A program made the translations under genes and the position numbers. Below, one piece after another: positions 14,952 through 55,571 of a stretch of 64,000 nt of DNA. Each line of letters begins with the position of its first letter. The first letter of the stretch is position 1. The DNA comes from Clostridia bacterium (GTDB lineage Bacteria; Bacillota; Clostridia; Oscillospirales; Acutalibacteraceae), in contig JAGAOS010000005.1 of the NCBI GenBank assembly GCA_017623575.1, positions 14,350-78,349 of the forward strand. Reading direction: 5' to 3'. The notes under the pieces are model-generated. The model saw nothing but the letters and a program-made list of their open reading frames with translations. It was not told the DNA's origin and ran no database searches.

Positions 14952-14991
14952 AATATAAAGCCCTCCTTTAAAAAAGTTTACCTCTGTTAAC

Positions 14992-15122
14992 ATTGTACCA
15001 TATTTTTAAGGGTTTGAAAAGACAAAAATCGTGTGCAAATTATAACAGGTTTTTTGCACTTTTTTGTGAAATGACAAAAATCGGTGTTTAATTTTGTTTA
15101 AAATGCACAACACTTTTTGTGG
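14992..15122 (-). promoter_or_regulatory. Candidate promoter region of the giant CBM-protein gene: extended -10 plus two 52-bp-spaced direct repeats
   Basis: The minus strand has TGgTACAAT at 14992..15000 with a weak -35. Upstream, the plus strand carries tgaaaagacaaaaatcgtgtg (about 15015) and tgaaatgacaaaaatcggtg (about 15067), each followed by gcac...ctttttgtg. Confidence 0.35.
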
Positions 15123-42135: not shown

Positions 42136-42170
42136 TAATTTGCAACTAATTTAATATCTGTTTAAAATTT

Positions 42171-42203
42171 AAAGACCTTGCCATTAGACAAGGTCTTTTT
42201 TTA
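42171..42203. terminator. Intrinsic terminator between convergent genes
   Basis: Stem aaagaccttg / caaggtcttt followed by a tttt run. Confidence 0.75.
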
Positions 42204-42273
42204 GTGCAAAATTTAATTTTATTAAGATGATATTTTGTGATTATATGTAATATTTGTATTCCATCAAGGCGTA

Positions 42274-42600
42274 TTATTTATTATCTAGTTGTTCCTTAGT
42301 TTCTTTTCTGCTTTGTTCTACAACCTGCAGTATTTGCACTGTGCTTAGCGTATTTTCATGCTCGATTGTTTTGCTTTGCTGTTTTACACATTCAGCGCAG
42401 ATTTGGCCAAGCCCAATCTCATAATTATCCCGCAAATCTACCGGCATAGAAATTGGCACATCAGTCAATGCGCCACATATTACACAACGCTCAAATTCTT
42501 TGCTTTTAGCAGATTTCTTCACCCGTTCAGACTTATTTTTGCGTGACGAACGAGTACCCCCAAAAAATTGGGAGATTTTGAGAAATATCTTTAACCTCAT
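42274..42600 (-). CDS. Small Cys4 zinc-ribbon-like protein, last gene of the fibre operon
   Basis: 108 aa with CVICG...CAEC. The ATG directly follows the upstream TAA, with a GAGGTGA RBS inside the upstream gene. Confidence 0.55.
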   Translation of the reverse strand: MRLKIFLKISQFFGGTRSSRKNKSERVKKSAKSKEFERCVICGALTDVPISMPVDLRDNYEIGLGQICAECVKQQSKTIEHENTLSTVQILQVVEQSRKETKEQLDNK

Positions 42601-43440
42601 TTATTCGTTCACCTCGGTGGTGGTAGTAGGTTCGTCTGTAGTTTCCGAATTTTCGATTACAGACTGGGTTTCTGTGTTTTCCTGGGTGGTTGACGGATTT
42701 GCTGACACAGAATCAGTATCTTCTACATCCAGCTTAGTACCGCCTTGATTATCATCGGGTGCACTGGATTCATTGGAATCAGGCAAGTCTGACTGTGACT
42801 GCAAAACAGCATCGCAATCGGCTTCGGAAATGCCGTTAATAATCATAACTACCTTGTTTTTTCCAACATCCTCATTAGTAATATACAATCTATCATTTTC
42901 GCCGTTTTGTGCATAATCGGCGTAATATGAAGATGTTCCCCAATGAGAAGTAAAGGTAACAGTGGTGTCAGCAGTAGGCTTAAGCTGGAAGATTACCTTA
43001 TCGGTAAATCTACCTGAAACCGTTTCATCAGCGCCAATTTGCTGAGTATGGAAGGTATCTGCACAACCGAGGGCGGTAACTATACAAAAACCTGTTTTTG
43101 CCGTACTATCAACACTTTCGTTCAAAGTAACAGTATAAATTTTGCCTGCCATTAATTTTGCAGTGTATGAGGCATTGGGCAGTTTTTCAACTTCAATCGG
43201 GGTGGTGCTTCCATTTTCGGTTATGCTGATTACAGCATCTGCCTCAAAATTCGCCGCTTTAATAGTATTGAAGCCGGAGGTGATATCGTGAGAAAAATAG
43301 GCATATGCAGTAAAGCTCATACCAATCAAGCACAAAACAACAGTAACTACAGTTGCCACAACTCGCATAAGCATTGTTTTTTCACTGATTTTTTCATCCT
43401 TGGGTATGTAAAAATTCTCTTTATAAAAGCTTCTCACCAA
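42601..43440 (-). CDS. Secreted protein with a SipW-type signal peptide and an acidic S/T-rich tail
   Basis: 279 aa. After the TM segment comes SFTAYAYFSHDITS. The C-terminal 80 aa are rich in D, E, S and T. Confidence 0.55.
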   Translation of the reverse strand: MVRSFYKENFYIPKDEKISEKTMLMRVVATVVTVVLCLIGMSFTAYAYFSHDITSGFNTIKAANFEADAVISITENGSTTPIEVEKLPNASYTAKLMAGKIYTVTLNESVDSTAKTGFCIVTALGCADTFHTQQIGADETVSGRFTDKVIFQLKPTADTTVTFTSHWGTSSYYADYAQNGENDRLYITNEDVGKNKVVMIINGISEADCDAVLQSQSDLPDSNESSAPDDNQGGTKLDVEDTDSVSANPSTTQENTETQSVIENSETTDEPTTTTEVNE

Positions 43441-43471
43441 ATCAACCTCCTTTCTTAATTTTTACTGATAA

Positions 43472-44125
43472 TTAGGGCTTTTTTATTTGATCTGCCTTGA
43501 CGGTAATGCCAAGATCCACCTCAGGAATAGTATCCCCACGGTAGTTGGCAACATTATCAACCTCTTTAGGCATACGGACAATGAGTGCAATGTATTTTGT
43601 TTCACCGGGATTTAATACCGCAGTTTCGGTATCATAGTTATGTAAAGGCATATCTGCAAGCTTCACAGCTGCATTTCGGTCAATAACACTATTCTTCATT
43701 TCGTTTTCGCTATTGGCGGTTGTAATGCCGAATTTTAAATAATCCTGCAGCATAAAGCGCTGACCGAATACATTAGTTGCCTGAATGCAACCGTTCACAT
43801 TAACTGCTGTATAAAATTCAAAAGGCAGGGTGCCTTTGTTTTCTACTTTTAAATACACAACCTGCACATAGCCGGGTTCATATAACGCTTCTTCATCAAA
43901 AATCTTGGTCTGACTGTCAACCTCTTCCCATTTTCCATCAGTAAGACGGTGAGATACCACCAAATCAAACTCAGCAAAATGAAAAATATTATTAATTTCG
44001 GGCGAGGTATCGGTAAACCAGGCAAGAGAGGTGCCTGTACCAAAAATTCCCCAGATAATAAGTGCGCACAAAGTAAGGACTAAAGCGATTCTTTTATAGG
44101 GTTTTTTCTTTGCGATTTTTTTCAA
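43472..44125 (-). CDS. TasA/camelysin-like fibre subunit with a SipW-type signal peptide
   Basis: 217 aa, TTG start with an AGGAGG RBS. Contains GTSLAWFTDTSPE and later YEPGYVQVVYLKVENKGTLPFEFY, the TasA-like WEPG...V.N.G.L block. Confidence 0.7.
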   Translation of the reverse strand: MKKIAKKKPYKRIALVLTLCALIIWGIFGTGTSLAWFTDTSPEINNIFHFAEFDLVVSHRLTDGKWEEVDSQTKIFDEEALYEPGYVQVVYLKVENKGTLPFEFYTAVNVNGCIQATNVFGQRFMLQDYLKFGITTANSENEMKNSVIDRNAAVKLADMPLHNYDTETAVLNPGETKYIALIVRMPKEVDNVANYRGDTIPEVDLGITVKADQIKKP

Positions 44126-44138
44126 GCTTTATTCCTCC

Positions 44139-44822
44139 TTATTTGTTTTTTGGGATTTTTTCTACATTCTCCTTATTCTTTTTTCGCCATACCAAAAGAA
44201 TAATAATCGTTGCAAGTGAAATTACCATAACAGCAATCCAAAGACCAATATTACTGTTATCACCCGTTGCGGGAGGCTTGGGATCGCCTTCTTCAACAGG
44301 AAATTCTTCAATCATAAATTGCCAATCAAGATAACCGATTTCACTTTGAAATTCATTATCCATCTCAACGGGAACATTTAATGTTACATCCAGATTGACC
44401 TCACCGCCCGAATAAAGGGTGCCAAGGCATACCCAATTGGTGAGCCCTGCTGTTTCATTCGCTGCGGCATCGAACATATATGCCATTTTATTATCACTGC
44501 TCTTTTCAACCTTCAAACCGAGCTGTGAAAGAAACTCCACAGAATTCTCGTGAGCGCCGAGAGAGCGCATATAGATTTTTACCTTTACCTTATTATCCGC
44601 ATTGTTTTTTACAGTGATTTTTTGTGTTAAGGTATCACCGGGCATAACGCCCTTGAAATTTGGGAAAAGGTCGGTCAAAGAATACTCGCTTCCGGGCTCA
44701 AATACAAACTCACCTGCGTTGCCGCTATAGGTTACTCTGCCATCTGCCGCATATGCAGAAAACGCAAAAAGAAAGGTAATAATAAAAGTGACAAAAACTA
44801 TAACAAAATTTTTTCTTAGCAC
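44139..44822 (-). CDS. TasA-like-domain surface protein with a classical signal peptide and a sortase (S/P)PxTG sorting signal
   Basis: 227 aa with an SAYA-ADG cleavage-like site. NFKGVMPGDTLTQKITVKNN is a TasA-like block. The C-terminus reads PPATGD, then a TM segment (IGLWIAVMVISLATIIILLVW), then RKKNK. Confidence 0.65.
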   Translation of the reverse strand: MLRKNFVIVFVTFIITFLFAFSAYAADGRVTYSGNAGEFVFEPGSEYSLTDLFPNFKGVMPGDTLTQKITVKNNADNKVKVKIYMRSLGAHENSVEFLSQLGLKVEKSSDNKMAYMFDAAANETAGLTNWVCLGTLYSGGEVNLDVTLNVPVEMDNEFQSEIGYLDWQFMIEEFPVEEGDPKPPATGDNSNIGLWIAVMVISLATIIILLVWRKKNKENVEKIPKNK

Positions 44823-44834
44823 CTGAAATCACCT

Positions 44835-45407
44835 CTATGCTTCTTCAGCGGGCCAACCGGATGCGGTATAGGTATTACCATCGCTGATGGGGTTGTTTTC
44901 ACTTTGTACCGCCTGAGCCTTAACGGTAAGATTAAGGGTTTTACCAAGATAACTGTTATCCACCTTGGAGCCGACGATTTCCACATGGGAGAACACCGCA
45001 GGAGTGGTTTCACCTGGATTTACAATGCCTGTATAGTAAAACCATCCGTCGGTATGAAGCACCCAATGTCGCTCATCAATATTAAGCTTGAAGCAATCCT
45101 CAGAGGAAAGCTCCTTTGAGTCGATACCGTAAACCATCTTAACACGGAGATAGAAAGGATGCTCACAATCACTTTCGATACTGACCTTCTTGGAAACAAT
45201 ATCTCCGGGAACGATATACACGCCCTCCCTTGGAAACTCGGTTCCCTGATCGGTCATTTCGTGAATTATAAAACGAATATTTCCGGTGGTAACAACATTT
45301 GTGGCTGTTCCAATAGTGGAATAATATGCAAGTGTGGACTGACTCATAAAGGTAACAAGAGCAGCAATAATAGCAACGATTAATATTTTAAATTTTGTCT
45401 TGCCCAA
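44835..45407 (-). CDS. BsaA/TasA-family SipW-dependent matrix protein
   Basis: I take the start as the TTG at 45407 behind an AAGGAGG RBS; the track ORF starts at 45446. Contains QSTLAYYSTIG, PGDIVSKKVSIES and the C-terminal TVKAQAVQSENN typical of BsaA-type proteins. Confidence 0.65.
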   Translation of the reverse strand: MGKTKFKILIVAIIAALVTFMSQSTLAYYSTIGTATNVVTTGNIRFIIHEMTDQGTEFPREGVYIVPGDIVSKKVSIESDCEHPFYLRVKMVYGIDSKELSSEDCFKLNIDERHWVLHTDGWFYYTGIVNPGETTPAVFSHVEIVGSKVDNSYLGKTLNLTVKAQAVQSENNPISDGNTYTASGWPAEEA

Positions 45408-45442
45408 TATAATGTCCTCCTTTTGCAAGATTTTGCCTATCA

Positions 45443-45633
45443 GCAATCAAAAGACAAAAACTACTGCGTAGTTTTGAAGTAATAAGTAATAGTGAATAGG
45501 TAATAAGTTCGGTGTGCCTTCGGCACGAATTTATTTTGTCGGCTCTGCCGACGCCTTACTTCTTACCTCTTACCTTAAAATGCAAAGCATTTTTGCCCTT
45601 TGATTGCCGCCTATCCCCCTTACGAGGGATAGG
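45443..45633 (-). repeat. Hairpin-rich composite intergenic repeat, copy A (full length)
   Basis: The outer arms gcaatcaaaagacaaaaa / tttttgccctttgattgc enclose the hairpins ctac-tgc-gtag, gtgcc-ttc-ggcac, gtcgg-ctctg-ccgac and aaaatgc-aaa-gcatttt, plus a purine-rich arm facing a pyrimidine-rich arm. A trailing hairpin cctatccc...gggatagg follows. Confidence 0.8.
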
Positions 45634-45668
45634 AAGGGCTTTATGTGAATAAAACTATATTTCGTTAA

Positions 45669-47780
45669 TTAAAGTGTAGCAAGATATGCATTCCACTCTG
45701 CTACAGTATAGTTGGTACCATTGTAAACAATTGCGCCAACTGTTGCGCCATCTTCGATAACGAGCTTTTGAAGATTTGCTTTTGTGGCATACGCTGAGGA
45801 AGTACCGTAATCGACAACAAGCTTATCGATTGCAGTGCCTGCTTTGATAGTCACTTTGCCCCTGATGGGAGCAGCATAGATCGTATCAATTTCTGCGCCG
45901 TCGATAGTAACATTGGCATGACTCCAGCAGTAGATAGTGCCGTATTCACCGCCGTTAACGGTGGTAGTGGTGCCATTAGAAAAACCTGCATCCACTGGCA
46001 TAGCACCGTCGATCATAGCGGTAGTGCCTGTCATAACACAATTATTCAAGATTGCGTTGCCGTAATGTGAAAAACCGCAAGCAAGAGTAAAGCCCTTGTC
46101 TCCGTTTGCGAGAGTCGAAACAAGATCCTTTACAACGAGGTTATTGGCAACATAGTCGCCGCCGCCCAAACCGTAATGACCAAGCTCAACGAAACCGGCA
46201 CCTGTAACGGTCAAATCACTTACAGTTACGTCCTCGCCTGCTGAAGGAACAAATGCAACATAACCGTGATTACCAACGGAGGGATCTGCACCCTCGGTAG
46301 TAATGGTATTACCCATGCCGTTAAAATTGATCGCATCGGTCGTCTCTATAATCAATTGATTGTCCGGATCGGTGTTAACATATTCAATATCGGTAGCCAT
46401 GAATACATCTTTGCCGCTGGTAGCAGTGTTAAGAGCTTCTGCAGTAGCAACCACCTGTCCGCCTGCAACAACTTTATTATTGTTCAAAGTGGGAACATAG
46501 TTATCGGTTTCGTAGATATAATTACCCTGATCGCCTGCCTGGCAGTCGATGAAGTGACTGTTCTTGATTACAATGTTAAAGCTGCTTTCTTCTCTATCGT
46601 CGATAGCAATACCTGGTTTCTCAGAAAGAGGTCCGAATACACAATCGTCTACCACAACATTTGAAACCTCGCCTGCATACTGGTCACAAACCTTCAAGCC
46701 GCGAGTACCGCTGAAGTAGCAACCGGTAAAGGTAGCCTTGCCGTTATAAACCCATGCGCCATACATCGTGGTATTGCCATAAGTAGAAGAATCGTTATTG
46801 TGGCCGGAGAAGGTACAGTCTACAAAGGTAGACAGAGGACCGTCGGTCATAATACCGTCGTCAAATGCAACATTAACAAAGGTGTTATTGCCACCAAGTT
46901 CAAGATAGGTGAACTCCCAAGCATTCTCACCGTCTTCATAGGTGTAGAAAGTAGAGTCTACAACCTTCATGTTCTTCAGGTTGATGTTATCAAGACCGCC
47001 GCCGTGACCGGTAACGGTGATGGTAGCATCATCGGACGCACCAACCAGAGTGACACCGTTCATGTCTCTGTTTTTGCCTGCACGTTCTGCAGCCAATTCA
47101 ATGGCAGTGCCTTTGATGCCAATGATCTTTGCACCGCTTGCAAGAGCATCTTCTAACTCTTTGGTTGTGGTAGCAAGAACATCATAATATGTGGCATCCT
47201 TATCATACTGGTTGTTAAAGCTATCATTTTCGTGTGTTAGCTGAGTAGCATAAACAGCAACTGAAATGCCCTCAACCTTGAGATTCTGATATTCATTACC
47301 GGCATTTTCCTTCATATGACCGGTAAGAATAATTTCGCCAGATTTTTCATTAGGAAGCAATTTACCTTCGTAGGTGTACATATCAGTCTCAACACCATCC
47401 ACGGTAATAGTCCAATCAATTGCTTCGAGAAGTTTTGCATCACCAATAATGCCATTGATAACAAAGTTGTATTTCAAAGCTAATGTGCCTTTATTTACAA
47501 CATAGATAGGCTCCATTTTATAAGTGCATCCGGGTTCCCAAAGAATCTGATCTTGAGCACGATTATCAGCAGTAACGAACTCAATAACCTCACCCTCTAA
47601 TGAGTTACCGTCAGCATCAACCAAATCAACCCTTAAAGTACCGGACTTAATAATGTTACCCGAAGAGGTAACGGAGTCTGTGAACCAAGCAAAGGTGCTT
47701 CCAACGAGCATAGAAACACATACAATTAGTGACAAAGCACTCATAAGGAGAGCACGCTTGGTGGTTTTAGCTTTAGTCAT
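45669..47780 (-). CDS. Large fibre/adhesin protein: SipW-type signal, TasA-like N-domain and right-handed beta-helix passenger
   Basis: 703 aa. Contains GSTFAWFTDSVTS, ILWEPGCTYKMEPIYVVNKGTLALKYNF, then repeated beta-helix-like turns (VDCTFSG, FTGCYFSG, VDDCVFG, IKNSHFIDC). Confidence 0.7.
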   Translation of the reverse strand: MTKAKTTKRALLMSALSLIVCVSMLVGSTFAWFTDSVTSSGNIIKSGTLRVDLVDADGNSLEGEVIEFVTADNRAQDQILWEPGCTYKMEPIYVVNKGTLALKYNFVINGIIGDAKLLEAIDWTITVDGVETDMYTYEGKLLPNEKSGEIILTGHMKENAGNEYQNLKVEGISVAVYATQLTHENDSFNNQYDKDATYYDVLATTTKELEDALASGAKIIGIKGTAIELAAERAGKNRDMNGVTLVGASDDATITVTGHGGGLDNINLKNMKVVDSTFYTYEDGENAWEFTYLELGGNNTFVNVAFDDGIMTDGPLSTFVDCTFSGHNNDSSTYGNTTMYGAWVYNGKATFTGCYFSGTRGLKVCDQYAGEVSNVVVDDCVFGPLSEKPGIAIDDREESSFNIVIKNSHFIDCQAGDQGNYIYETDNYVPTLNNNKVVAGGQVVATAEALNTATSGKDVFMATDIEYVNTDPDNQLIIETTDAINFNGMGNTITTEGADPSVGNHGYVAFVPSAGEDVTVSDLTVTGAGFVELGHYGLGGGDYVANNLVVKDLVSTLANGDKGFTLACGFSHYGNAILNNCVMTGTTAMIDGAMPVDAGFSNGTTTTVNGGEYGTIYCWSHANVTIDGAEIDTIYAAPIRGKVTIKAGTAIDKLVVDYGTSSAYATKANLQKLVIEDGATVGAIVYNGTNYTVAEWNAYLATL

Positions 47781-47936
47781 TTTATTTTCTCCTTTTTATG
47801 CTGTCGGTGTAGATTTAAAGTTTTTTACCCACACACCGACATATGGGAATAACTATGCTTTTAACTTGTGTAAGGGAGCTTTTATAAAGCAATTAAACTA
47901 AAGTTCCTTTTTTGATGCTAGGCATCATTTGGGGGA

Positions 47937-48620
47937 TTATTTGCCCCAATAGTTAGTGAATGCGGCGCGTGCCTCTGTGCCGGTGTTATCAGCCTGAAGA
48001 GCCTCTGCCTTAACCTTAATGCTAAAGTCGCCACTAACATACTTCATATCTTCCTGCTCAAACTCACCGGGGATGGTTACATTGTTAAAAAGAACAGCTG
48101 TCTGATCCTCAACAAGTTTGGTGCGGAGATAGTACACATAGGTTACCTTGTTGTCAACATAGGTGGTAGCTGCATCATCAGCATACCAAGCATTAGCATC
48201 AACATCTAACCAAGTGCGAAGGTCGCTGGTGATACCCTGTGCGTCACAAGCAGCCTTAATGGTTGACCACTCATCAAAGGAAACATATACACGGATCCAC
48301 TGATCATAATCACCTGTATTCTCAACTGTAGGATTCTTGGGAAGCTTATCGCCGGGGGCGATTTCGGGATATGTATTACCGGCATGAGTAATTTCGGTAT
48401 CACCGTCATTATCAGCATCGGCATTGTTATCACCGTCATTCTCATTTTCCCATACCTCAACGCTGAAGTCGGGAGTACCGTCTCCGTCGCTATCGGCAAT
48501 TAAGAATTTATTGGTAATTTCATCAGCAGCATTGAACCATGCCAAAGTACCCATAGAAAGAATAGCAATAAGGCAAACTGCAAGAGCTGCAACAAACACC
48601 TTTTTCTTAGTTAATCTCAT
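47937..48620 (-). CDS. BsaA/TasA-family SipW-dependent matrix protein with an Asp-rich Ca-binding-like insert
   Basis: 227 aa. Contains MGTLAWFNAADEI, DSDGDGTPD...NDGDNNADADNDGDTE, PGDKLPKNPTVENTG and the C-terminal KVKAEALQADN. Confidence 0.65.
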   Translation of the reverse strand: MRLTKKKVFVAALAVCLIAILSMGTLAWFNAADEITNKFLIADSDGDGTPDFSVEVWENENDGDNNADADNDGDTEITHAGNTYPEIAPGDKLPKNPTVENTGDYDQWIRVYVSFDEWSTIKAACDAQGITSDLRTWLDVDANAWYADDAATTYVDNKVTYVYYLRTKLVEDQTAVLFNNVTIPGEFEQEDMKYVSGDFSIKVKAEALQADNTGTEARAAFTNYWGK

Positions 48621-48701
48621 TGTATTTTTCCTCCTTTCTTAAAGATTTTATTTCAAACTCGTGCCTGTCGGAATTCCTTTACAGGCGCGAATCGGAAACC
48701 G

Positions 48702-49325
48702 TTAGTTTTCGCTCTTTTTGCTTTCCATTTCGGCACGGAGCTGAGCAAGCTCGGCCTTCAGTTTTTCGTTTTCCTCCGCAGCAGTGTCAATTTCGGTCTG
48801 CACGGCGGAAGCTTCTTCGCCTTCATCATCTTTTTTCTTCTTACCAATCATATCGGGCAGAAAAACGGCGATGATCAAAATAACACCTATAGCAATGGTT
48901 ATGTACATACCGGGGGGATGCTGCACAAAGTCTGAAACATAGCCAAGCTTTGGAATAGAAAACTTAGGCACACCTATTACATTGTTATAATGAACGGGGG
49001 CTTGATCCTCCACCTGATTGGCATCACCCTTGGTATAAAAACGCTGATTTTCGGCATCCACACGAACAACGCGGTGGGTACCAATAGCCAAATCCTCATT
49101 AATAATAAAGGTTATTACATCCCCCGCCTTAATGGTGGCAGGGTCAACCTGTTTTACATAAATAAGATCCCCTACACTGTAATTAGGCTCCATACTGGGG
49201 GAAATAACGGTATAGCACTGATAGCCTATAAGCCGTGAGCCCATTAAAAATACGGCGCAAAAAACAATTACAATAACTAGTATGGTAGATACAATGTTCC
49301 ATACTTTTTTAAGGGTGTTATTCAT
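48702..49325 (-). CDS. sipW: Signal peptidase I, SipW (archaeal/ER) type, with a C-terminal TM segment and charged coiled-coil-like tail
   Basis: 207 aa. Contains ISPSMEP (catalytic Ser), GDLIYVK, THRVV (His) and TKGDANQVED, then a TM segment and the tail KKKKDDEGEE...NEKLKAELAQLRAEMESKK. Confidence 0.85.
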   Translation of the reverse strand: MNNTLKKVWNIVSTILVIVIVFCAVFLMGSRLIGYQCYTVISPSMEPNYSVGDLIYVKQVDPATIKAGDVITFIINEDLAIGTHRVVRVDAENQRFYTKGDANQVEDQAPVHYNNVIGVPKFSIPKLGYVSDFVQHPPGMYITIAIGVILIIAVFLPDMIGKKKKDDEGEEASAVQTEIDTAAEENEKLKAELAQLRAEMESKKSEN

Positions 49326-49340
49326 AAATGCATCTCCTTG

Positions 49341-49508
49341 TTACCTTCGGTAATAAGAACCTGACCTGTTACCGCAATCACAGATTGCGAACAGGTGCCC
49401 AGAACCTTGTTGCCTTTCGGCAATCAAAAGACAAAAATTACCTCTTACCTTAAAATGCAAAGCATTTTTGCCCTTTGATTGCCGCCTATCCCCCTTGCGA
49501 GGGATAGG
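49341..49508 (-). repeat. Hairpin-rich composite intergenic repeat, copy B (central part deleted, extra 5' module)
   Basis: Shares ttgcctttcggcaatcaaaagacaaaaa ... ttacctcttaccttaaaatgcaaagcatttttgccctttgattgccgcctatccccc with copy A. It also shares the module taataagaacctgacctgttaccgcaatcacagattgcgaacaggtgcccagaaccttgttgcc with copy C. Confidence 0.8.
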
Positions 49509-49554
49509 ACGGACTTTATTATCCGTTCATGCGGATAGTATTTATATTTTAAAA

Positions 49555-51570
49555 TTAGTAAACATCCACACCGTCAATAACAATGTTCAGATACTCTTTA
49601 GTCATAGAATTCTTGTTACCAACGATATTCTTGTAACCAACACACTTATCATTCTCAGCAAAGCCGTTAACGGTAGTATCGTTGATATAGATGTTGTACT
49701 TAGCACCAACACCGTCTACACCGGTTTCGAAAGCAGACTTAGTAAAGCCGGTGCCATTGGTGCGATCATTAAAGGTACAACCATCTACATAAACATCACA
49801 GGTCTGATTGTAAACAAGAATGGACTTACCATCGGTGTTAAAGGTGCAATTGTTGAACTTAACGTTTTTGCCACCCCAAGTCCAAATGTTGTAATAATCA
49901 CCTGTAACATTGAATGTACAGTTGTTGAACACACTTTCGCCATAGAGAGTGTATGAACCATTGAATGTACAGTTGTTATAAGTGGCTCTGCAACGCGCAT
50001 ATCCCGCATAAGTATGACCATCGGTGTTGATAGTAACACCCTCAAAGGTTACGGTTGAGCCATCAAGGCTATAGTCGCAACCCTCATAGGAGCCGTCGTT
50101 TTGGTTAGCTACAACAGTATTGCCGTTACCAACGATGGTAAGAGTCTTACCCTGAGCAGAATCAGGAATGATGTAGTTACCGGAGCCCAAAACCACAGTA
50201 GATGCACCATTAGCAATAGCAGTATCAAACTGAGTATTGTTCTTTACCTGAACAGCCTCGGTTGCATCGCTGCCATCGGCTGCATCACCAAGGATTTTAA
50301 CTTGATAGTCCTGAGCAGAAGACTGTGCAGCATAAACTCTTGCAGCTACGGTAGCGTTTTTAACATAAATAACCAAAGGATTGGAATATCCTGTATCCTG
50401 ATGAGTTGCAAACTGACCGCCGCCTTCAAACTTAACATCATCACCCAAAAGATAGATGCTGGTGAGGTTCGGGCAAGAACGGAATACATAGTTAGCAAGT
50501 GTAGGATTGCCTTTGATGGTAACGGTGGTCAGGTTTGCCATATCTCTGAACGCACCCTCATCAATCATCTTAACGCTTGCAGGAATGGTAAGTTTAGACA
50601 TACCTGTTAGTCTAAAGGCCTGCTCACCAATGTATTCAAGAGTTGACGGGAAATTGATCGATTTAAGAGTTGACATATTGATTGCTCTTGCATTGATTTC
50701 CTTAACACCCTCAGGAAGAGTGATACTCTCAACAGAAGAATACTTGCTGAATACCGGTCCGTTGGTATCATTCTTATCTTTAGCAATACCAATCATAGTT
50801 ACATCGTCCGGCACGGTAAAGGTTGTGCCTACATTTCCATAAGGAACACTTCTGAGCACTACATTACCATCGTTAAGGTAGTAATAGGTGTTGCCGTCGA
50901 TAACCTTGATGTGCTTATCAGGAACATCGATATCATCGTAGTTCTCGTCAAAGCTGTCTTTCTCAACATTGTCCTGAGTAGCCATCAAAACAACCTTGAA
51001 ATCAGAACCGATAGAAAGTCCCTGATACTCGTTGCCGGCAGTTTCCTGCATTTTAAGGGCAATGGTTACGGTGTCAGCGGTATTTGCTTTAAGGTCGCCG
51101 GCCATATTAGCAGGCATACCGTCCAAAATATCGCTTAAAGTACCAACTTTGGTGAGTTCAGTCATTTCTCTGCTTGCCAAAGTATATTCACCCTCAGCGA
51201 AATACACGTCGATAACATCAGCGAGTTCACTAACTTCGCCATTCGCTGCAATGTTAAGGTTGTATTTGAGAGCCAAAGTGCCGACATTGCTGATTTTAAT
51301 GTTCTTTGCCTCAACATAGCCGGGCTCCCAAAGATCGTAATTAAAGATTGCACCGGCAGAAGCATCTTTGTAAACCTGCTGTGCACCGGTTGGGGTTGCA
51401 TCCTTCCACTCCATTGTTACGTCAAGAGTACCGGACTTAATAATGTTACCTGCGGAAGTAACGCTGTCTGTGAACCAAGCGAATGTGCTACCAACCAACA
51501 TAGATATGCACACAAGCAAGGACAAGGCGCTGAACAGCAAAGCGCGCTTGGTTGATTTTTGCTTTGTCAT
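49555..51570 (-). CDS. Large fibre/adhesin protein: SipW-type signal, TasA-like N-domain, BspA-type LRR and beta-helix passenger
   Basis: 671 aa. The N-terminal 45 aa are nearly identical to the 703-aa protein. The LRR-like region reads ITLPEGVKEINARAI...INFPSTLEYIGEQAF...LTIPASVKMIDEGAF. NCTFN repeats occur near the C-terminus. Confidence 0.7.
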   Translation of the reverse strand: MTKQKSTKRALLFSALSLLVCISMLVGSTFAWFTDSVTSAGNIIKSGTLDVTMEWKDATPTGAQQVYKDASAGAIFNYDLWEPGYVEAKNIKISNVGTLALKYNLNIAANGEVSELADVIDVYFAEGEYTLASREMTELTKVGTLSDILDGMPANMAGDLKANTADTVTIALKMQETAGNEYQGLSIGSDFKVVLMATQDNVEKDSFDENYDDIDVPDKHIKVIDGNTYYYLNDGNVVLRSVPYGNVGTTFTVPDDVTMIGIAKDKNDTNGPVFSKYSSVESITLPEGVKEINARAINMSTLKSINFPSTLEYIGEQAFRLTGMSKLTIPASVKMIDEGAFRDMANLTTVTIKGNPTLANYVFRSCPNLTSIYLLGDDVKFEGGGQFATHQDTGYSNPLVIYVKNATVAARVYAAQSSAQDYQVKILGDAADGSDATEAVQVKNNTQFDTAIANGASTVVLGSGNYIIPDSAQGKTLTIVGNGNTVVANQNDGSYEGCDYSLDGSTVTFEGVTINTDGHTYAGYARCRATYNNCTFNGSYTLYGESVFNNCTFNVTGDYYNIWTWGGKNVKFNNCTFNTDGKSILVYNQTCDVYVDGCTFNDRTNGTGFTKSAFETGVDGVGAKYNIYINDTTVNGFAENDKCVGYKNIVGNKNSMTKEYLNIVIDGVDVY

Positions 51571-51672
51571 ATAAATGACCTCCTTATTTTATTTTGCCAA
51601 CGCTCAAAAGTGGATAACCGCACCGCGCTGACCGTTGACTTAACGCACGGAACGATTGGTAGATTTTTAATA

Positions 51673-51954
51673 TTGCCTTTCGGTAATAAGAACCTGACCT
51701 GTTACCGCAATCACAGATTGCGAACAGGTGCCCAGAACCTTGTTGCCTTCGGCAATCAAAAGACAAAAAACTACTGCGTAGTTTTGAAGTAATATGTAAT
51801 AGTGAATAGGTAATAAGTTCGGTGTGCATTAGGCACGAATTTATTTTGTCGGCTCTGCCGACACCTTACTTTTTCACTATTACCTCTTACTTATTACCTC
51901 AAAACCGCAACGCGGTTTTTGCCCTTTGATTGCCGCCCATCTGAAAGGGATGGG
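51673..51954 (-). repeat. Hairpin-rich composite intergenic repeat, copy C (full length plus 5' module), within the 5' leader of the 671-aa gene
   Basis: Same architecture as copies A and B, but two hairpins have different sequences that still pair: aaaaccgc-aa-gcggtttt replaces aaaatgc-aaa-gcatttt, and cccatc-tgaaag-gatggg replaces cctatccc...gggatagg. Confidence 0.8.
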
Positions 51955-52036
51955 ACGGCGTGAGGTGAAAATGTTCGAAGCCGTGATATATTTTATTACC
52001 ACGCTCAACATAGGGATAAGCTATATAGTAATAGAA

Positions 52037-52267
52037 TTAATACTTTACAAATGGGATTAGTGATAACCACAATCTCCTTCTTTTATGTATCCAGTACCGC
52101 CGTTCCGAACCATCGGTGCGCTCGATTTCCATATTGATATATTCCAGTTCCTGTAAAAATTCTTTAATGAACAAGCATAAACCAACAAGCAATCCAATAA
52201 AAATCGGAACAGCAATAATTCCTATAAGTATCCAAAATGTGGTATCCAAATTATTTGCTTCGGGCAT
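52037..52267 (-). CDS. Small single-TM membrane protein
   Basis: I take the start as the ATG at 52267 (MPEANNLDTTFWILIGIIAVPIFIGLLVGL...) behind an AGGAGA RBS; the track ORF extends further upstream. Confidence 0.45.
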   Translation of the reverse strand: MPEANNLDTTFWILIGIIAVPIFIGLLVGLCLFIKEFLQELEYINMEIERTDGSERRYWIHKRRRLWLSLIPFVKY

Positions 52268-52400
52268 CGCTATCTCCTGTTTCTTCGCTGGCGGGGGTGG
52301 GGGTAGTGCGGTTTTGTTTGGAATTGTTGATACTAAAAACGGCACAAATCATAAAACCGATAATACCGCCCACAACAAATCCAATAAAAAAATTCAACAT
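52251..52400 (-). CDS. Possible 49-aa hydrophobic peptide (DUF3789-like, recalled from memory)
   Basis: MLNFFIGFVVGGIIGFMICAVFSINNSKQNRTTPTPASEETGDSDARSK. It falls below the ORF-track size cut-off and overlaps the next start by about 17 nt. The RBS is weak. Confidence 0.3.
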   Translation of the reverse strand: MLNFFIGFVVGGIIGFMICAVFSINNSKQNRTTPTPASEETGDSDARSK

Positions 52401-52438
52401 TGGGTTTCAACTACTTTCTATAAGTAAGGGGACTATAA

Positions 52439-53188
52439 TTACTCTGTTTCTGCACCCGTAGTAGTATCGGATACAGTATCATCAGATGCAATGGTGGCAG
52501 TTTCTGCAACTGCTTCATCAGGCTGTTTGCCCTCCAACTGAGCTTTAAGTGCTTTAAGCTCCTCAAGCATCTTGGCGTTTTCTGCCTTTTCTGCTTCAAT
52601 TTTATCCTTTTCAGCCTGCATTTCTTCCATCTGCTCTTTTTTATAGCGGCGGAACAGGTTGAAGAATTTAACACCTTCATACAAAATAATCAGCATAAAT
52701 GGGGTGAAAATACAAACGAAATATCCGGGGGTGGTCTTTAAAAAGTTAAAGAAGGTTCCAAGGCCGGGAATGGCGCTTGAATATTTACCCAAAACATAAG
52801 GGTAGGTTACAATGGTTTCATCATCCACACCGGTGGTGGTACCATAGGTAACAAATCCGGGATTACCCTCAGCATCGGTGGTGAGAGTGCGGATTTTATG
52901 GGTTATGGTTTCGCCGAAGCTGTTGGTATCCTGTGACATAAAGGTGATGATGTCGCCCGCTTTAAGGGTGGAGGGATCAACCTCTTTTACAAGAATCAAG
53001 GAGCCTGCATCAAAATCGGTAGCTGCCATTGAATCTGTATTTACTATGTACATCTTAATACCAAACAGATCTCTGTCATTGCGGTTAAAGGTGGTAACCG
53101 AGATAACGGTAAATATCATCATAGATACCGCAAGTAGAACAATCAGCCATATGATTGTTATTTTAATAATGTTAAATGCTTTTTTCAC
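52439..53188 (-). CDS. sipW: Second, divergent SipW-type signal peptidase I with a long coiled-coil-like tail
   Basis: 249 aa, GTG start. Contains NTDSMAA (Ser), GSLILVKEVDPSTLKAGDIITF (matches B. subtilis SipW closely) and ITHKI (His). YGTTTGVDDE replaces the KGDAN block. A TM segment follows, then KKEQMEEMQAEKDKIEAEKAENAKMLEELKALKAQLEG. Confidence 0.75.
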   Translation of the reverse strand: MKKAFNIIKITIIWLIVLLAVSMMIFTVISVTTFNRNDRDLFGIKMYIVNTDSMAATDFDAGSLILVKEVDPSTLKAGDIITFMSQDTNSFGETITHKIRTLTTDAEGNPGFVTYGTTTGVDDETIVTYPYVLGKYSSAIPGLGTFFNFLKTTPGYFVCIFTPFMLIILYEGVKFFNLFRRYKKEQMEEMQAEKDKIEAEKAENAKMLEELKALKAQLEGKQPDEAVAETATIASDDTVSDTTTGAETE

Positions 53189-53208
53189 AATATACCCTCT
53201 CTTTGCTT

Positions 53209-53823
53209 TTATTTTTCAAAAACGGTCTCCGCTGCCTCTTTATTGCTCCAGGAAAGCTGCGTACCAATTGCCGAATAAATGACCGAAAAAACCTCTTCTG
53301 CTGTTTCTTCGTCATCCGGAATTTCGGCACGCAAAATTTTAATAATGGTGGAGTAAACAATATCGAGTATGCGATTTAACACACGCCAAACATCCGTACT
53401 TTTTTTGAAAGCGGGGGTGAAACTTTCTATAACCCTGCAATACGCCCTTCTTCTGTCTATAGGAGAATAGGAATTGTAATAGTGAGAATAATAGTACTTG
53501 ATAAAGAAAGAGCATTTTTCTCTGTCGGAAACAATATTCTTCCAACAGCTTCTGAAGAATATATGACATCTTTCATCAATATCAATTCCTTTTATATTCA
53601 TAATCGGTACATACTTTAGAATACAAGCAATAAGCTCATTATCAATTTCGGTAAAGGTAGCAGCAAATAAATCATCCTTATCCTTAAATACCCTATAAAT
53701 ATATGCCTCGTTAATGCCTGAATGGGTTGCTATTGCTTTTGTGGTGGCTTTGTGAATGCCGTCGGCGGCAACTATGTGGATGGTGCTGTCAATAAATTTT
53801 TGACGCATATACGACTGTTCCAT
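53209..53823 (-). CDS. TetR/AcrR family transcriptional regulator
   Basis: I take the start as the ATG at 53823 behind a GGAGGA RBS. The N-terminal HTH reads FIDSTIHIVAADGIHKATTKAIATHSGINEAYIYRVFKDKDDLF. Confidence 0.8.
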   Translation of the reverse strand: MEQSYMRQKFIDSTIHIVAADGIHKATTKAIATHSGINEAYIYRVFKDKDDLFAATFTEIDNELIACILKYVPIMNIKGIDIDERCHIFFRSCWKNIVSDREKCSFFIKYYYSHYYNSYSPIDRRRAYCRVIESFTPAFKKSTDVWRVLNRILDIVYSTIIKILRAEIPDDEETAEEVFSVIYSAIGTQLSWSNKEAAETVFEK

Positions 53824-53873
53824 TTTCTTTCCTCCGGTTCGTAAGTGTTTACTACAAATTTTAGAAAAATAAT

Positions 53874-53892
53874 ACAAACGCTGAACGTTTGT
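53874..53892. promoter_or_regulatory. Palindromic operator candidate upstream of the TetR gene
   Basis: acaaacg-ctgaa-cgtttgt has 7-bp inverted arms and lies about 50 nt upstream of the TetR start. Confidence 0.4.
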
Positions 53893-53970
53893 GCTTTAAT
53901 TTTGCATAATCTTTGCGGAGGAGTGAGTATCTGTAAAATTCAGTTAAGAATACGGCCTGATTAGTAATTC

Positions 53971-54201
53971 TTAAGGTTTAATAATAGGTTCGACATTTAT
54001 AATGCTTTCTTTGGCACACCGCTTACATTTAATCGGTAGATTTTTAATCTCAGTGTCGGGAAGTAACCAGAGCACTGTATGCTTTCCGCATATGGGACAA
54101 AAAAATCTTCGTCGCTCTGTTTTAGTATCGTTTTCTGTTATTTTATTCTGTAATGCTTTTTCCAAATTAGGATCACCTCGGTTTTGGCTCAATTGCATCA
54201 A
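53971..54201 (-). CDS. Cysteine-rich KTR-domain-like small protein
   Basis: FFCPICGKHTVLWLLPDTEIKNLPIKCKRCAKESIINV matches the CPxCG...NFPLxCxxC pattern of KTR proteins found on Firmicutes mobile elements. The real start may be the TTG at 54165 behind GAGGTGA. Confidence 0.6.
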   Translation of the reverse strand: MMQLSQNRGDPNLEKALQNKITENDTKTERRRFFCPICGKHTVLWLLPDTEIKNLPIKCKRCAKESIINVEPIIKP

Positions 54202-54204
54202 ATA

Positions 54205-54262
54205 ACCTTAAAAAAGAAAAGCCTGTACCATAATCGTATAAAACGATTAAATGGCACAGGCT
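54205..54262 (-). terminator. Strong intrinsic terminator (minus strand) between the recombination sites and the KTR gene
   Basis: On the minus strand a long stem agcctgtgccat...atggtacaggct (one mismatch, with an inner aatcgt/acgatt helix) is followed by ttttcttttttaagg. Confidence 0.7.
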
Positions 54263-54360
54263 CTAAGGCTCAGGCACGGGATAATTTTTTATGTATTACG
54301 CGAGGTACGACTCACTCTGTTAAGATTATGTATATGTTCAATGAATAACGATAGTATTCA

Positions 54361-54382
54361 ACATAATGGGTATTATGTTGTA
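54361..54382 (+). repeat. Core-type recombination site 1 (dif-like)
   Basis: acataatgggtattatgttgta. The 7-bp inverted arms acataat/attatgt surround gggt. Same orientation as site 2. Confidence 0.65.
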
Positions 54383-54419
54383 TTTGTTTATAAAAAAACG
54401 ATGCTAATTGAACATCGGC

Positions 54420-54444
54420 ATCACATAATGGGTATTATGTTGTA
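54420..54444 (+). repeat. Core-type recombination site 2 (dif-like)
   Basis: atcacataatgggtattatgttgta is a perfect 25-bp inverted repeat of site 3. Confidence 0.7.
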
Positions 54445-54680
54445 CGAACAGCCGAAACTAGCATACTTCGTTACTTCATCAGTAGCAATGATTATAGCAT
54501 AGTTTGTTGAAAAAAGCAAGTAATTTTTAATAAAAAATAAGATTTACATAAAAACAACAGATTTTGGGCGTAGTGAAGGAGACCTTTTGTTTAATTTTTT
54601 CAAAAGGTCATCTTTGTTATACTTTATTTACATATATTAAAGCATCTAATAATGGTAAATCTCCTTTATTTATTAAGTTT

Positions 54681-54705
54681 TACAACATAATACCCATTAT
54701 GTGAT
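54681..54705 (-). repeat. Core-type recombination site 3 (dif-like), inverted relative to sites 1 and 2
   Basis: tacaacataatacccattatgtgat is the reverse complement of site 2. It lies 24 nt from the recombinase stop codon. Confidence 0.7.
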
Positions 54706-54728: not shown

Positions 54729-55571
54729 TTATATTATCAATCGCATATTCTCCATACGGCGCTGATGCTCTGCACCGGTGGTAATTATATAAATACGAGT
54801 TGTATTTATATTGGAATGACCAAGAATATCCGCCAGCTTTGCAATATCCTTTTCAATGCCGTAAAAAGTGCGAGCAAAAAGATGTCTGAGATTGTGCGGA
54901 AAAACCTTTTGCGGCGAAACACCGGCTTCTTCACACAGTTCCTTCATTTGCCGCCATATATTACTACGGTCAAGCGGCTTTCCGTTTTTGGTTACAAACA
55001 ATATTCCGGTAGTAATACCCTGTTCTGCGGCATACCGAAGCAGCTTCTTTTTCAAAGCCTTGACAATGAATATTTTTCTTGTTTTACCCTTACAAGAAAC
55101 CTCTGCCTCCCCTCGCCTGACAGCCTCCACAGTTATATATTGCAACTCACTAACACGAATGCCTGTTCCACAGATTGTCTGTACCACAAGGGACAGCCGT
55201 TCGTTTTTCTTTTGCTCAGCCGCTCTGACAAGGGCTGTGTATTCCGCCCTGGTAAGCTCCTTTTCCTCAGAACAGTAGGCTTCGTTTTGAAGCTTGAACT
55301 GCTTTACACATAAATCATTCCAGCCGGCAAATCTAAAAAAGGCATTCAATGCCGCCAGCATTGAGTTGGTGCTTCTTATGGCGTACTTTTCGGCTAAGGC
55401 GCCCTTGTACTCCAACACCATTGCTTTATTTGGTATATTCCCATCTGCATAATCTGCAAAAAAATGAATATCTCGCATATATTTTTGAATGGTTGCTTCT
55501 GTCTTTTCATTTTCGGTAAGATATTTTTTAAAGTCATTTATAATTTTTAAGGTAATAATAGTTTTTTTCAT
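54729..55571 (-). CDS. Tyrosine site-specific recombinase (XerC/XerD-like integrase family)
   Basis: 280 aa. N-terminal SAM-like core-binding domain. Catalytic residues are R in GTGIRVSEL, HxxR in HNLRHLFARTF, and H...Y in LGHSNINTTRIY. Confidence 0.9.
   Translation of the reverse strand: MKKTIITLKIINDFKKYLTENEKTEATIQKYMRDIHFFADYADGNIPNKAMVLEYKGALAEKYAIRSTNSMLAALNAFFRFAGWNDLCVKQFKLQNEAYCSEEKELTRAEYTALVRAAEQKKNERLSLVVQTICGTGIRVSELQYITVEAVRRGEAEVSCKGKTRKIFIVKALKKKLLRYAAEQGITTGILFVTKNGKPLDRSNIWRQMKELCEEAGVSPQKVFPHNLRHLFARTFYGIEKDIAKLADILGHSNINTTRIYIITTGAEHQRRMENMRLII

Follow-up and report, generated by a model that had tools for sequence, protein, structure and literature searches.

Cassette exchange and an upstream invertible switch at a clostridial locus encoding candidate TasA/BsaA-type fibre subunits with large passenger domains

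In a bacterium of the Acutalibacteraceae from the gut or rumen, two large proteins of 703 and 671 amino acids (aa), here given the working names g703 and g671, are encoded on a 64,000-nucleotide (nt) stretch of contig JAGAOS010000005.1 (assembly GCA_017623575.1, positions 14,350 to 78,349 of the forward strand). The whole stretch is referred to as the window and all positions are counted from its first letter. The reading we favour, with reasonable though not high confidence, is that g703 and g671 are paralogous SipW-dependent fibre subunits of the TasA/BsaA type, subject to cassette exchange and placed behind an upstream switch. Head cores and passengers are almost certainly exchanged independently of each other, as cassettes, within and between genomes. 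The exchange almost certainly proceeds by recombination at three sites, namely a 5′ block encoding the signal peptide and donor strand, a junction motif between head and passenger, and a structured element 3′ of the genes. The two open reading frames (ORFs) and their parts are as follows.

45669..47780, minus strand: g703, ORF for a 703-aa SipW-signal protein with a TasA-family head and two beta-helix passenger domains
47634..47780, minus strand: conserved 5′ block of g703, with the signal peptide (aa 1-31) at 47688-47780
47634-47687, minus strand: predicted donor strand and first core strand of g703 (aa 32-49)
47202..47249, minus strand: head-passenger junction motif of g703, ATQLTHENDSFNNQYD
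45672..47201, minus strand: passenger of g703 (aa 194-703)
49555..51570, minus strand: g671, ORF for a 671-aa SipW-signal protein with a TasA-family head, BspA-type leucine-rich repeats (LRR) and a C-terminal beta-helix
51424..51570, minus strand: conserved 5′ block of g671 (signal peptide and predicted donor strand)
50935..50982, minus strand: head-passenger junction motif of g671, ATQDNVEKDSFDENYD

Both ORFs lie where the initial annotation had placed them, with the N-termini that it quoted. Its claim that the heads are near-identical holds for residues 1-49, of which 43 are identical (26 of the 31 signal-peptide residues and 17 of the 18 that follow), but not for the rest of the head, where 49 of 166 aligned columns (30%) agree. 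Over the whole heads the identity is 43% (E 2e-29). Alignment of the two genes, one of the checks then proposed, maps the shared 5′ stretch to the first 49 codons, but the underlying DNA had been called very similar and this is an overstatement. Its identity is 76% over 144 nt, or 111/147 over the 49 codons, of which 24 are identical, 19 differ synonymously and six differ non-synonymously. The 19 synonymous differences and the modest DNA identity indicate that the 5′ similarity is kept by selection on the peptide, and they rule out a recent gene conversion between g703 and g671 in this genome.

By their sequences both heads are assigned to the TasA/camelysin family, in agreement with the earlier view of them as TasA-like domains behind SipW-type signals. 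The g671 head matches PF12389 (Peptidase_M73) with 32.9 bits against a cutoff of 22.5, over residues 13-201 and profile positions 8-193 of 196, and 49 of 70 related large proteins match this family as well. Taken alone, g703 scores 19.5 bits, below the cutoff, and at its N-terminus only. The model for the SipW-dependent signal, TIGR04088 (cutoff 19), is matched by g703 with 25.6 bits and by g671 with 23.0 bits, and SipW genes adjoin both. Monomer models from AlphaFold2 (AF2) show a beta-sandwich head between a disordered post-signal stretch and the passengers. In the g703 model (predicted local distance difference test, pLDDT, 83.4) the head spans about residues 51-180 and residues 27-45 have pLDDT below 50; in the g671 model (pLDDT 84.5, predicted TM-score 0.77) residues 1-43 are disordered. 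Foldseek searches of the PDB, for which the full-length models served as queries so that the passengers dilute the head scores, match both heads to AbpA, the TasA homolog of archaeal bundling pili (7ueg, probability 1.0, target TM-score 0.37-0.39). The heads also match the donor-strand pilins CfaB and FimF/G and the pilin domain of PapG.

The head type is widespread. When a profile built from the two heads is searched against 1.84 billion cluster representatives (50% identity), at least 7,056 clusters match at E ≤ 1e-3 and 2,834 at E ≤ 1e-30. In the best 148 representatives the head is N-terminal in every case, the median length is 674 aa and three are shorter than 300 aa. A genome scan yields at least 562 loci in gut Clostridia, including Faecalibacterium, Butyrivibrio and Agathobacter, and cultured carriers are Yeguia hominis, Brotomerdimonas butyrica and Lentihominibacter faecis. 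Tandem arrays reach seven large genes. The passengers of these relatives mostly have no Pfam match; those that do belong chiefly to beta-helix families, with LRR_5, Flg_new, SASA, M26_N, GLUG and Big_3 as rare domains. Databases carry only labels such as 'leucine-rich repeat protein', 'right-handed parallel beta-helix repeat-containing protein' and 'predicted ... SipW-like signal peptide', and full-text literature searches gave no description of TasA-family heads fused to passengers.

Conservation in the family is highest over residues 32-49. Among the 148 representatives A31, W32, F33, T34, D35, N42, G47 and L49 are invariant, and the junction motif ATQxTxExDSFxNQYD is nearly so. The donor strand of TasA comprises residues 28-38, directly after the SipW cleavage site (PMC9674648), and residues 32-49 of the large proteins line up with this strand, AFNDIKSKDATFASGTL (PMC9674648). 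On the alignment with TasA (PMC9674648), residues 32-45 (WFTDSVTSSGNIIK) are the predicted donor strand, and cleavage is likewise predicted after A31. Three further positions are conserved in the same representatives (g703 numbering), N42 and E82 at 100% and K103 at 95%. In BsaA the triad N35-E56-K74 forms an intermolecular isopeptide (PMC11580942), and N42-E82-K103 might be its counterpart by analogy. D35, N96, N162, E184 and D186 are also invariant in the heads and could form a putative metal-binding site.

Modularity was surveyed in 305 proteins with a complete head, the head boundaries being set by hidden Markov model. In 727 pairs the head cores are at least 70% identical and the passengers unrelated; in another 126 pairs it is the passengers that agree, with an identity of 60% or more across 80% or more of their length, and the head cores are at most 50% identical. 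These mosaics uphold the initial annotation in its view of the passengers as exchangeable modules, and the search that it suggested for other passengers behind similar heads finds them in abundance. The head as a constant module, the other half of that view, has to be given up: the head core itself varies and is exchanged, and what stays constant is the signal/donor block, together with the junction motif and the 3′ element. In the pair P0025/P0016 identity is 99.6% from ...ENDSFDNQYD to the C-terminus and about 30% between the head cores, a pattern that puts a recent breakpoint precisely on the junction motif. Behind different heads, the C-terminal module of g703 (aa 436-703) recurs at 69-80% identity. 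Single-linkage clustering of the passengers was dropped because the similarity of beta-helix repeats merged nearly all of them into one cluster.

Related loci place breakpoints at the same sites. In one relative (L004), found on eight contigs from different samples, the g671 ortholog matches the window at 96-100% identity over a segment that starts near nt 150 of the gene and ends some 50 nt beyond its stop, between flanks of 57-92% identity. Its first 126 nt are 71% identical to g671 of the window and 90% identical to the 5′ end of this relative's own second large gene; identity to the window climbs from 71% to about 100% just past the 5′ block, and the 3′ breakpoint of the high-identity segment falls within a copy (B, below) of the 3′ element. 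In the g703 slot the same relative has a 674-aa gene whose head is 40% identical to that of g703 and whose passenger is unrelated. From two further loci (L005 and L006) the g671 cassette is missing as a whole (window 51899 to 49354); the vacant site is marked by one intergenic unit alone, and the g703 ortholog is followed by an additional large gene. In L010 and L007 the similarity to g703 ends at about 47200 and 47241, that is, at the junction motif. Array paralogs of isolates and of metagenome-assembled genomes (MAGs) have 90-98% DNA identity over their first 135 nt; the figure falls to 55-60% for the head core and to about 45-55% for the passenger. The suggestion that the shared 5′ ends and flanking repeats would allow recombination is thus borne out, as both coincide with breakpoints in relatives. 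Assembly chimeras are unlikely to lie behind the mosaics. The L004 arrangement was recovered from different samples by different assemblers, that of the window occurs on several contigs, and isolate genomes carry the same homogenised 5′ blocks.

The flanking repeats, reported earlier as copies A-C, are present at the following positions.

45433..45650, minus strand: copy A of the 3′ element, downstream of g703
49346..49520, minus strand: copy B of the 3′ element, downstream of g671
51679..51945, minus strand: copy C of the element, upstream of g671, with an inner part that is absent from L004

Read on the sense strand, the element begins with a GC-rich stem-loop in which the sequence varies and the pairing is kept. 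Directly after it comes a long hairpin whose loop measures 8 to about 150 nt and whose arms are conserved (GCAATCAAAGGGCA and TGyCTTTTGATTGC). The fetched loci hold at least 76 instances from many genera (e.g., L023:9855-9931 and L068:11799-11875), typically directly past the stop of each array gene. Compensatory changes are seen in 10 of the 19 consensus hairpin pairs among 47 short-loop copies, and the RNA of copy B folds with -86.5 kcal/mol (z = -7.4). An Rfam scan of 42000-54500 gives no family for the repeats, the best match being IMES-4 with 28 bits against a gathering score of 48. The element could act as a transcript terminator or stabiliser, as a protein-binding site or as a cassette boundary. 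Whatever its function, its position 3′ of each gene supplies homology on the 3′ side of every cassette.

At the upstream end of the cluster a recombinase gene adjoins a segment that is almost certainly a genuine invertible switch, present in both orientations within one strain.

54361..54705: invertible switch, with a perfect 25-bp inverted repeat (54420-54444 and 54681-54705) and a third repeat copy at 54361-54382
54729..55571, minus strand: Xer-like tyrosine recombinase (PF00589, E 1.2e-25), syntenic in relatives

The 25-bp repeats flank 236 bp and begin 24 bp from the end of the recombinase gene; the third copy allows two inversion end points. Three relatives (L001-L003) carry the inner segment in the opposite orientation with respect to both flanks, and so does L084, a contig from a different sample whose identity to the window is 99.96% over 5 kb. 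Two contigs that are 100% identical to the window (L082 and L083) have the orientation of the window, and two of the contigs L082-L084 begin 30 nt before the repeat. Against the NCBIfam models of Xer proteins, integrases and invertases the recombinase stays below every cutoff. The inner segment carries TTGCTT-N17-TGCTATAAT, which in the window points at the cluster. This sequence is a putative promoter that would drive the cluster, in which case the window shows the ON state.

The passengers of the two proteins differ in kind. For g671 the described order of BspA-type LRR followed by beta-helix is confirmed. PF13306 (LRR_5) matches residues 273-374 with E 1.6e-21 and 76.9 bits (cutoff 27.7). 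Solved BspA-type relatives in the PDB include 4fs7 (E 1.7e-19), 4gt6, TpLRR and PcpA, and Foldseek returns 4fs7, 4cp6, 4gt6 and 7ueg for the protein. The structure prediction that had been called for, carried out with AF2, confidently models the C-terminal beta-helix at residues 437-671 of g671 and resolves the g703 passenger into two beta-helices, at about residues 200-440 and 445-700. The 'pectate-lyase-like beta-helix' proposed for g703 therefore stands as a right-handed beta-helix fold, in two domains, but no Pfam family matches this passenger, and 'pectate-lyase-like' describes the fold only. The LRR of g671 likely acts as a ligand-binding module; for the beta-helix passengers binding or glycan cleavage is possible.

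The two beta-helices of g703 are separately exchangeable modules with a boundary near aa 436-441. Searches found only 219 homologs of this passenger, and half of them stand behind a second head class. This second, divergent class of SipW-type heads (P0252-P0297, with N-termini such as ...AIGGTVAYLQDSDSDVNVMTLGNVKIEQHEYER) bears halves of the g703 passenger, which makes the passenger modules common to two head families.

The cluster to which g703 and g671 belong is a single co-directional one on the minus strand, from about 55571 to 42274 (ORF, Pfam and NCBIfam scans), and all six SipW-type signals of the window lie inside it. The Xer-like recombinase comes first, followed by an 850-bp spacer, a small Cys-rich ORF, the TetR regulator and SipW peptidase 1. 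After small ORFs with transmembrane segments come g671, SipW peptidase 2 and the 227-aa SipW-signal protein, and the cluster closes with g703, the 203-aa SipW-signal protein, the PPATG protein, the 217-aa protein and the 279-aa protein. Among genomes the nearest are MAGs from ruminant and other gut samples, classed as Acutalibacteraceae or as unclassified Clostridia. The companion genes are listed in the order of transcription.

53209..53877, minus strand: TetR-family regulator, second gene downstream of the switch (PF00440, E 3.3e-9)
52439..53188, minus strand: SipW-type signal peptidase 1, 249 aa (TIGR02228, 61.6 bits, cutoff 51.85; SipW model, E 3.5e-20)
48702..49325, minus strand: SipW-type signal peptidase 2, 207 aa (TIGR02228, 102 bits; PF10502)
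47937..48620, minus strand: 227-aa SipW-signal protein, weakly BsaA-like (TIGR04088, 27.3 bits; TIGR04090, E 5.9e-7, below cutoff)
44835..45446, minus strand: 203-aa protein with a SipW-type signal, weakly BsaA-like (TIGR04090, E 2.2e-8, below cutoff)
44139..44822, minus strand: 227-aa PPATG protein with an ordinary signal peptide, a C-terminal PPATG, a transmembrane segment and a basic tail (TIGR01167, 18.2 bits, cutoff 15.9)
43472..44125, minus strand: 217-aa head-only paralog with neither junction motif nor passenger (hhalign)
42601..43440, minus strand: 279-aa TapA-like candidate with a SipW-type signal, a donor-strand look-alike, a small domain and an acidic Thr/Glu/Pro-rich tail

C-terminal of the last transmembrane segment, the two SipW paralogs extend into long Glu/Lys/Ala-rich tails of coiled-coil appearance (e.g., ...EENEKLKAELAQLRAEMESKK). 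The 217-aa protein matches the head profile end to end in hhalign (probability 99.7%, E 1.6e-26), stops just where the junction motif would start and has orthologs in L010 and L014; it is a candidate shaft subunit. At the position that corresponds to K103 of the large proteins it has a Glu. The 227-aa SipW-signal protein and the PPATG protein give only weak local matches to the head profile and are for this reason not called the same head type. The N-terminal segment YFSHDITSGFNTIKAAN of the 279-aa protein resembles the donor strand WFTDSVTSSGNIIKSGT of the large proteins, and proteins of its type close gene arrays in many genera. The N-terminus of TapA likewise resembles the TasA donor strand (PMC9674648), and by this analogy the 279-aa protein is a candidate TapA-like nucleator or anchor. 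The PPATG protein is, from its sequence features, a candidate sortase substrate and cell-wall anchor. Its signal is presumably of the (S/P)PxTG type known from Clostridioides.

Together these parts suggest how a fibre might be put together. Each large protein would follow one plan, with a signal peptide, a conserved donor strand, a variable TasA-fold head, the junction motif and the passenger. SipW would cut after A31, and the freed strand WFTDSVTSxGNIIKSG would complete the beta-sandwich of a neighbouring subunit of the head type, either another large protein or the 217-aa paralog. The passengers would thereby be displayed on the fibre as ligand-binding modules. The 279-aa protein would start assembly and the PPATG protein would anchor the fibre to the cell wall. 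A donor-strand block kept identical among paralogs would keep the cassettes compatible with SipW and with a common acceptor groove. That g703 and g671 enter a fibre by donor-strand complementation is, in our judgement, somewhat better supported than its denial.

Several results weigh against the fibre and against the wider reading of the locus. TasA itself is not among the top Foldseek matches of the g703 and g671 models, and a profile of 19 diverse heads searched against the PDB reaches the TasA structures (5of1 and 8aur) only at E 0.8-1.3, so that membership of the TasA family rests on the Pfam match and the fold. Among 44 related loci of at least 15 kb, 14 are without a SipW gene within 10 kb and 23 without a small subunit, from which it follows that a separate shaft subunit is not a general requirement. 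The C-terminal residues of TasA form an inter-subunit interface (PMC9674648), and by comparison with that interface (PMC9674648) a 500-aa C-terminal passenger could sterically hinder packing. The window ORFs scanned include no sortase gene. A consensus promoter scan lists sites no more often than in shuffled sequence and does not list the promoter in the switch; the ON/OFF call thus rests on the direct reading of its two boxes and spacer.

Within a fibre the large proteins might sit at the tip or decorate a shaft of 217-aa subunits. A fibre might also consist of the large proteins alone, as a 'bottle-brush' homo- or heteropolymer with a passenger on each subunit, a variant of the favoured reading with another architecture. 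We regard this as possible but doubtful. Arrays of Yeguia, Brotomerdimonas, Lentihominibacter and others contain 3-7 large genes and one TapA-like gene, with no head-only subunit, and such arrays fit fibres built of large proteins at least as well as they fit tip adhesins; for those genera the lack speaks in favour of self-polymerisation. The near-identical 5′ donor-strand blocks within arrays would keep the paralogs mutually compatible, and the head type almost never occurs without a passenger, as the three short proteins among the 148 representatives indicate. Against it, the window, L010 and L014 do encode a head-only paralog.

It is unlikely that the heads do not polymerise at all and serve as a SipW-dependent export or stalk domain, with g703 and g671 as monomeric secreted or membrane-tethered proteins. 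At some related loci a large gene does stand alone, with neither a SipW gene nor a small subunit less than 10 kb away, and BsaB, a TasA-family paralog of C. perfringens, makes no long oligomers (PMC11580942). However, conservation peaks in the predicted donor-strand segment and is not confined to the hydrophobic signal, the heads have the fold of donor-strand pilins in Foldseek, and the locus encodes both a head-only paralog and a TapA-like protein with a donor-strand look-alike.

Less probable still is the view of g703 and g671 as independent secreted polysaccharide-degrading enzymes, such as pectate lyases, with an N-terminus that is merely an export signal. The best Foldseek matches of the right-handed beta-helices of g703 are GH87 glucanases, PL6 lyases, phage tailspike depolymerases and pectate lyase A, glycoside hydrolase genes occur elsewhere in the window, and rare family members carry SASA esterase or M26-type domains. 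The TM-scores of these matches are low, though (0.18-0.36), and most of the nearly invariant passenger positions hold Gly, Cys or an aromatic residue, just one being acidic. In Pfam searches with both passengers at E = 10, no lyase, carbohydrate-active enzyme (CAZyme) or beta-helix family is matched and only noise is returned, and a single-sequence PDB search with g703 gives chance-level matches to phage hyaluronidase only. The g671 passenger has the LRR, a binding fold, and PF20585, a beta-helix family found in some relatives, is named 'putative pectate lyase-like adhesive domain' by Pfam. The beta-helix fold is common to many non-enzymatic adhesins, and enzymatic activity is in any case compatible with display on a fibre. 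Finally, it is hardly credible that the N-terminal identity is a trivial leftover of recent duplication or gene conversion in this genome, for which an exact 24-nt run common to g703 and g671 and the homogenised 5′ blocks of other genomes might be cited, since the same peptide is conserved across thousands of clusters.

The proposed system of SipW-dependent subunits has likenesses to several known ones. With TasA/TapA/SipW of Bacillus subtilis (PF12389; 5OF1, 8AUR) it shares the SipW-type signal with an adjoining SipW gene, the beta-sandwich head, an N-terminal strand of the pattern xF[NT]D...SGTL right after the cleavage site and, in the 279-aa protein, an accessory protein with a donor-strand-like N-terminus as in TapA. 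TasA, however, is a single-domain protein of about 26 kDa without a junction motif, whereas the heads here bear passengers of 450-500 aa (in relatives up to about 1,900 aa), carry a conserved junction motif and occur in multigene arrays. The BsaA/BsaB/SipW system of Clostridium perfringens (TIGR04090; PMC11580942) is also a clostridial SipW operon with several TasA-family paralogs, with LPXTG-type partners in some strains and evidence of recombination between paralogs (PMC11580942). Such operons hold several BsaA/TasA paralogs next to LPXTG genes, and heteropolymers are possible (PMC11580942). In contrast to the large proteins here, BsaA is a small single-domain subunit, and passenger fusions are not described in that work (PMC11580942).

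The fusion of a strand-complementing pilin-type domain to a ligand-binding domain recalls FimH and PapG of chaperone-usher pili and the tip adhesins of sortase pili. Chaperone-usher systems differ in their unrelated sequence and in their secretion and assembly machinery, and there is no chaperone or usher here. The domain order is also the reverse of that in FimH and PapG, as the pilin-like head stands at the N-terminus here and the binding module at the C-terminus. Phage tailspikes and receptor-binding proteins similarly combine a conserved N-terminal attachment part with horizontally exchanged beta-helices and recombine at conserved linkers, but the present locus is a cellular surface-fibre locus with no phage genes, and its anchor is a TasA-type head and not a tail-binding domain. 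The switch resembles known invertons (fimS of E. coli and the RecV-dependent ones of Clostridioides difficile) in its short perfect inverted repeats, its size of about 240 bp, the putative promoter, the adjoining tyrosine recombinase and the occurrence of both orientations in one strain. It differs in having a third repeat copy and a recombinase that is Xer-like and below every curated model. We found no earlier description of inverton control over a TasA-type locus.

The imperfect structured hairpin with a variable loop after each gene is reminiscent of integron attC cassettes; unlike in integrons, the recombinase scores far short of the integron-integrase cutoffs, and at most related loci no recombinase is seen. 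A bolder proposal would take the TasA-type fibres of gut Clostridia as programmable display scaffolds with reshuffled cassettes, the 3′ hairpin as an attC-like mobilising boundary site, and the subunits as locked by an N42-E82-K103 isopeptide. We consider this combination improbable.

Outside the cluster the window contains three further ORFs of unusual size or make-up, all on the minus strand. A 999-aa ORF at 28311-31310 joins an N-terminal MFS transporter domain (residues 14-375) to glycoside hydrolase family 2 domains (about 498-864), and by its domain matches it appears to be a transporter-enzyme fusion of an unusual kind. The ORF at 9918-14993 encodes 1691 aa with a MAM domain, and that at 18641-22660 encodes 1339 aa with a Flg_new repeat and a GDSL lipase-like domain. 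The products of the latter two are probably surface or secreted proteins.

Fibres of the TasA family are known as plain structural scaffolds made of small single-domain subunits. The proteins examined here belong to a very large and previously undescribed subfamily in which the fibre-subunit fold is joined to large LRR or beta-helix passengers and which is common in human and ruminant gut Clostridia. The defined breakpoints and the conserved non-coding element are useful for the study of how surface repertoires diversify, and the system is open to direct testing in cultured isolates. If the heads polymerise, the subfamily would constitute a major unrecognised class of Gram-positive adhesive or enzyme-displaying gut fibres, with a specificity varied by module exchange and an expression varied by phase variation.

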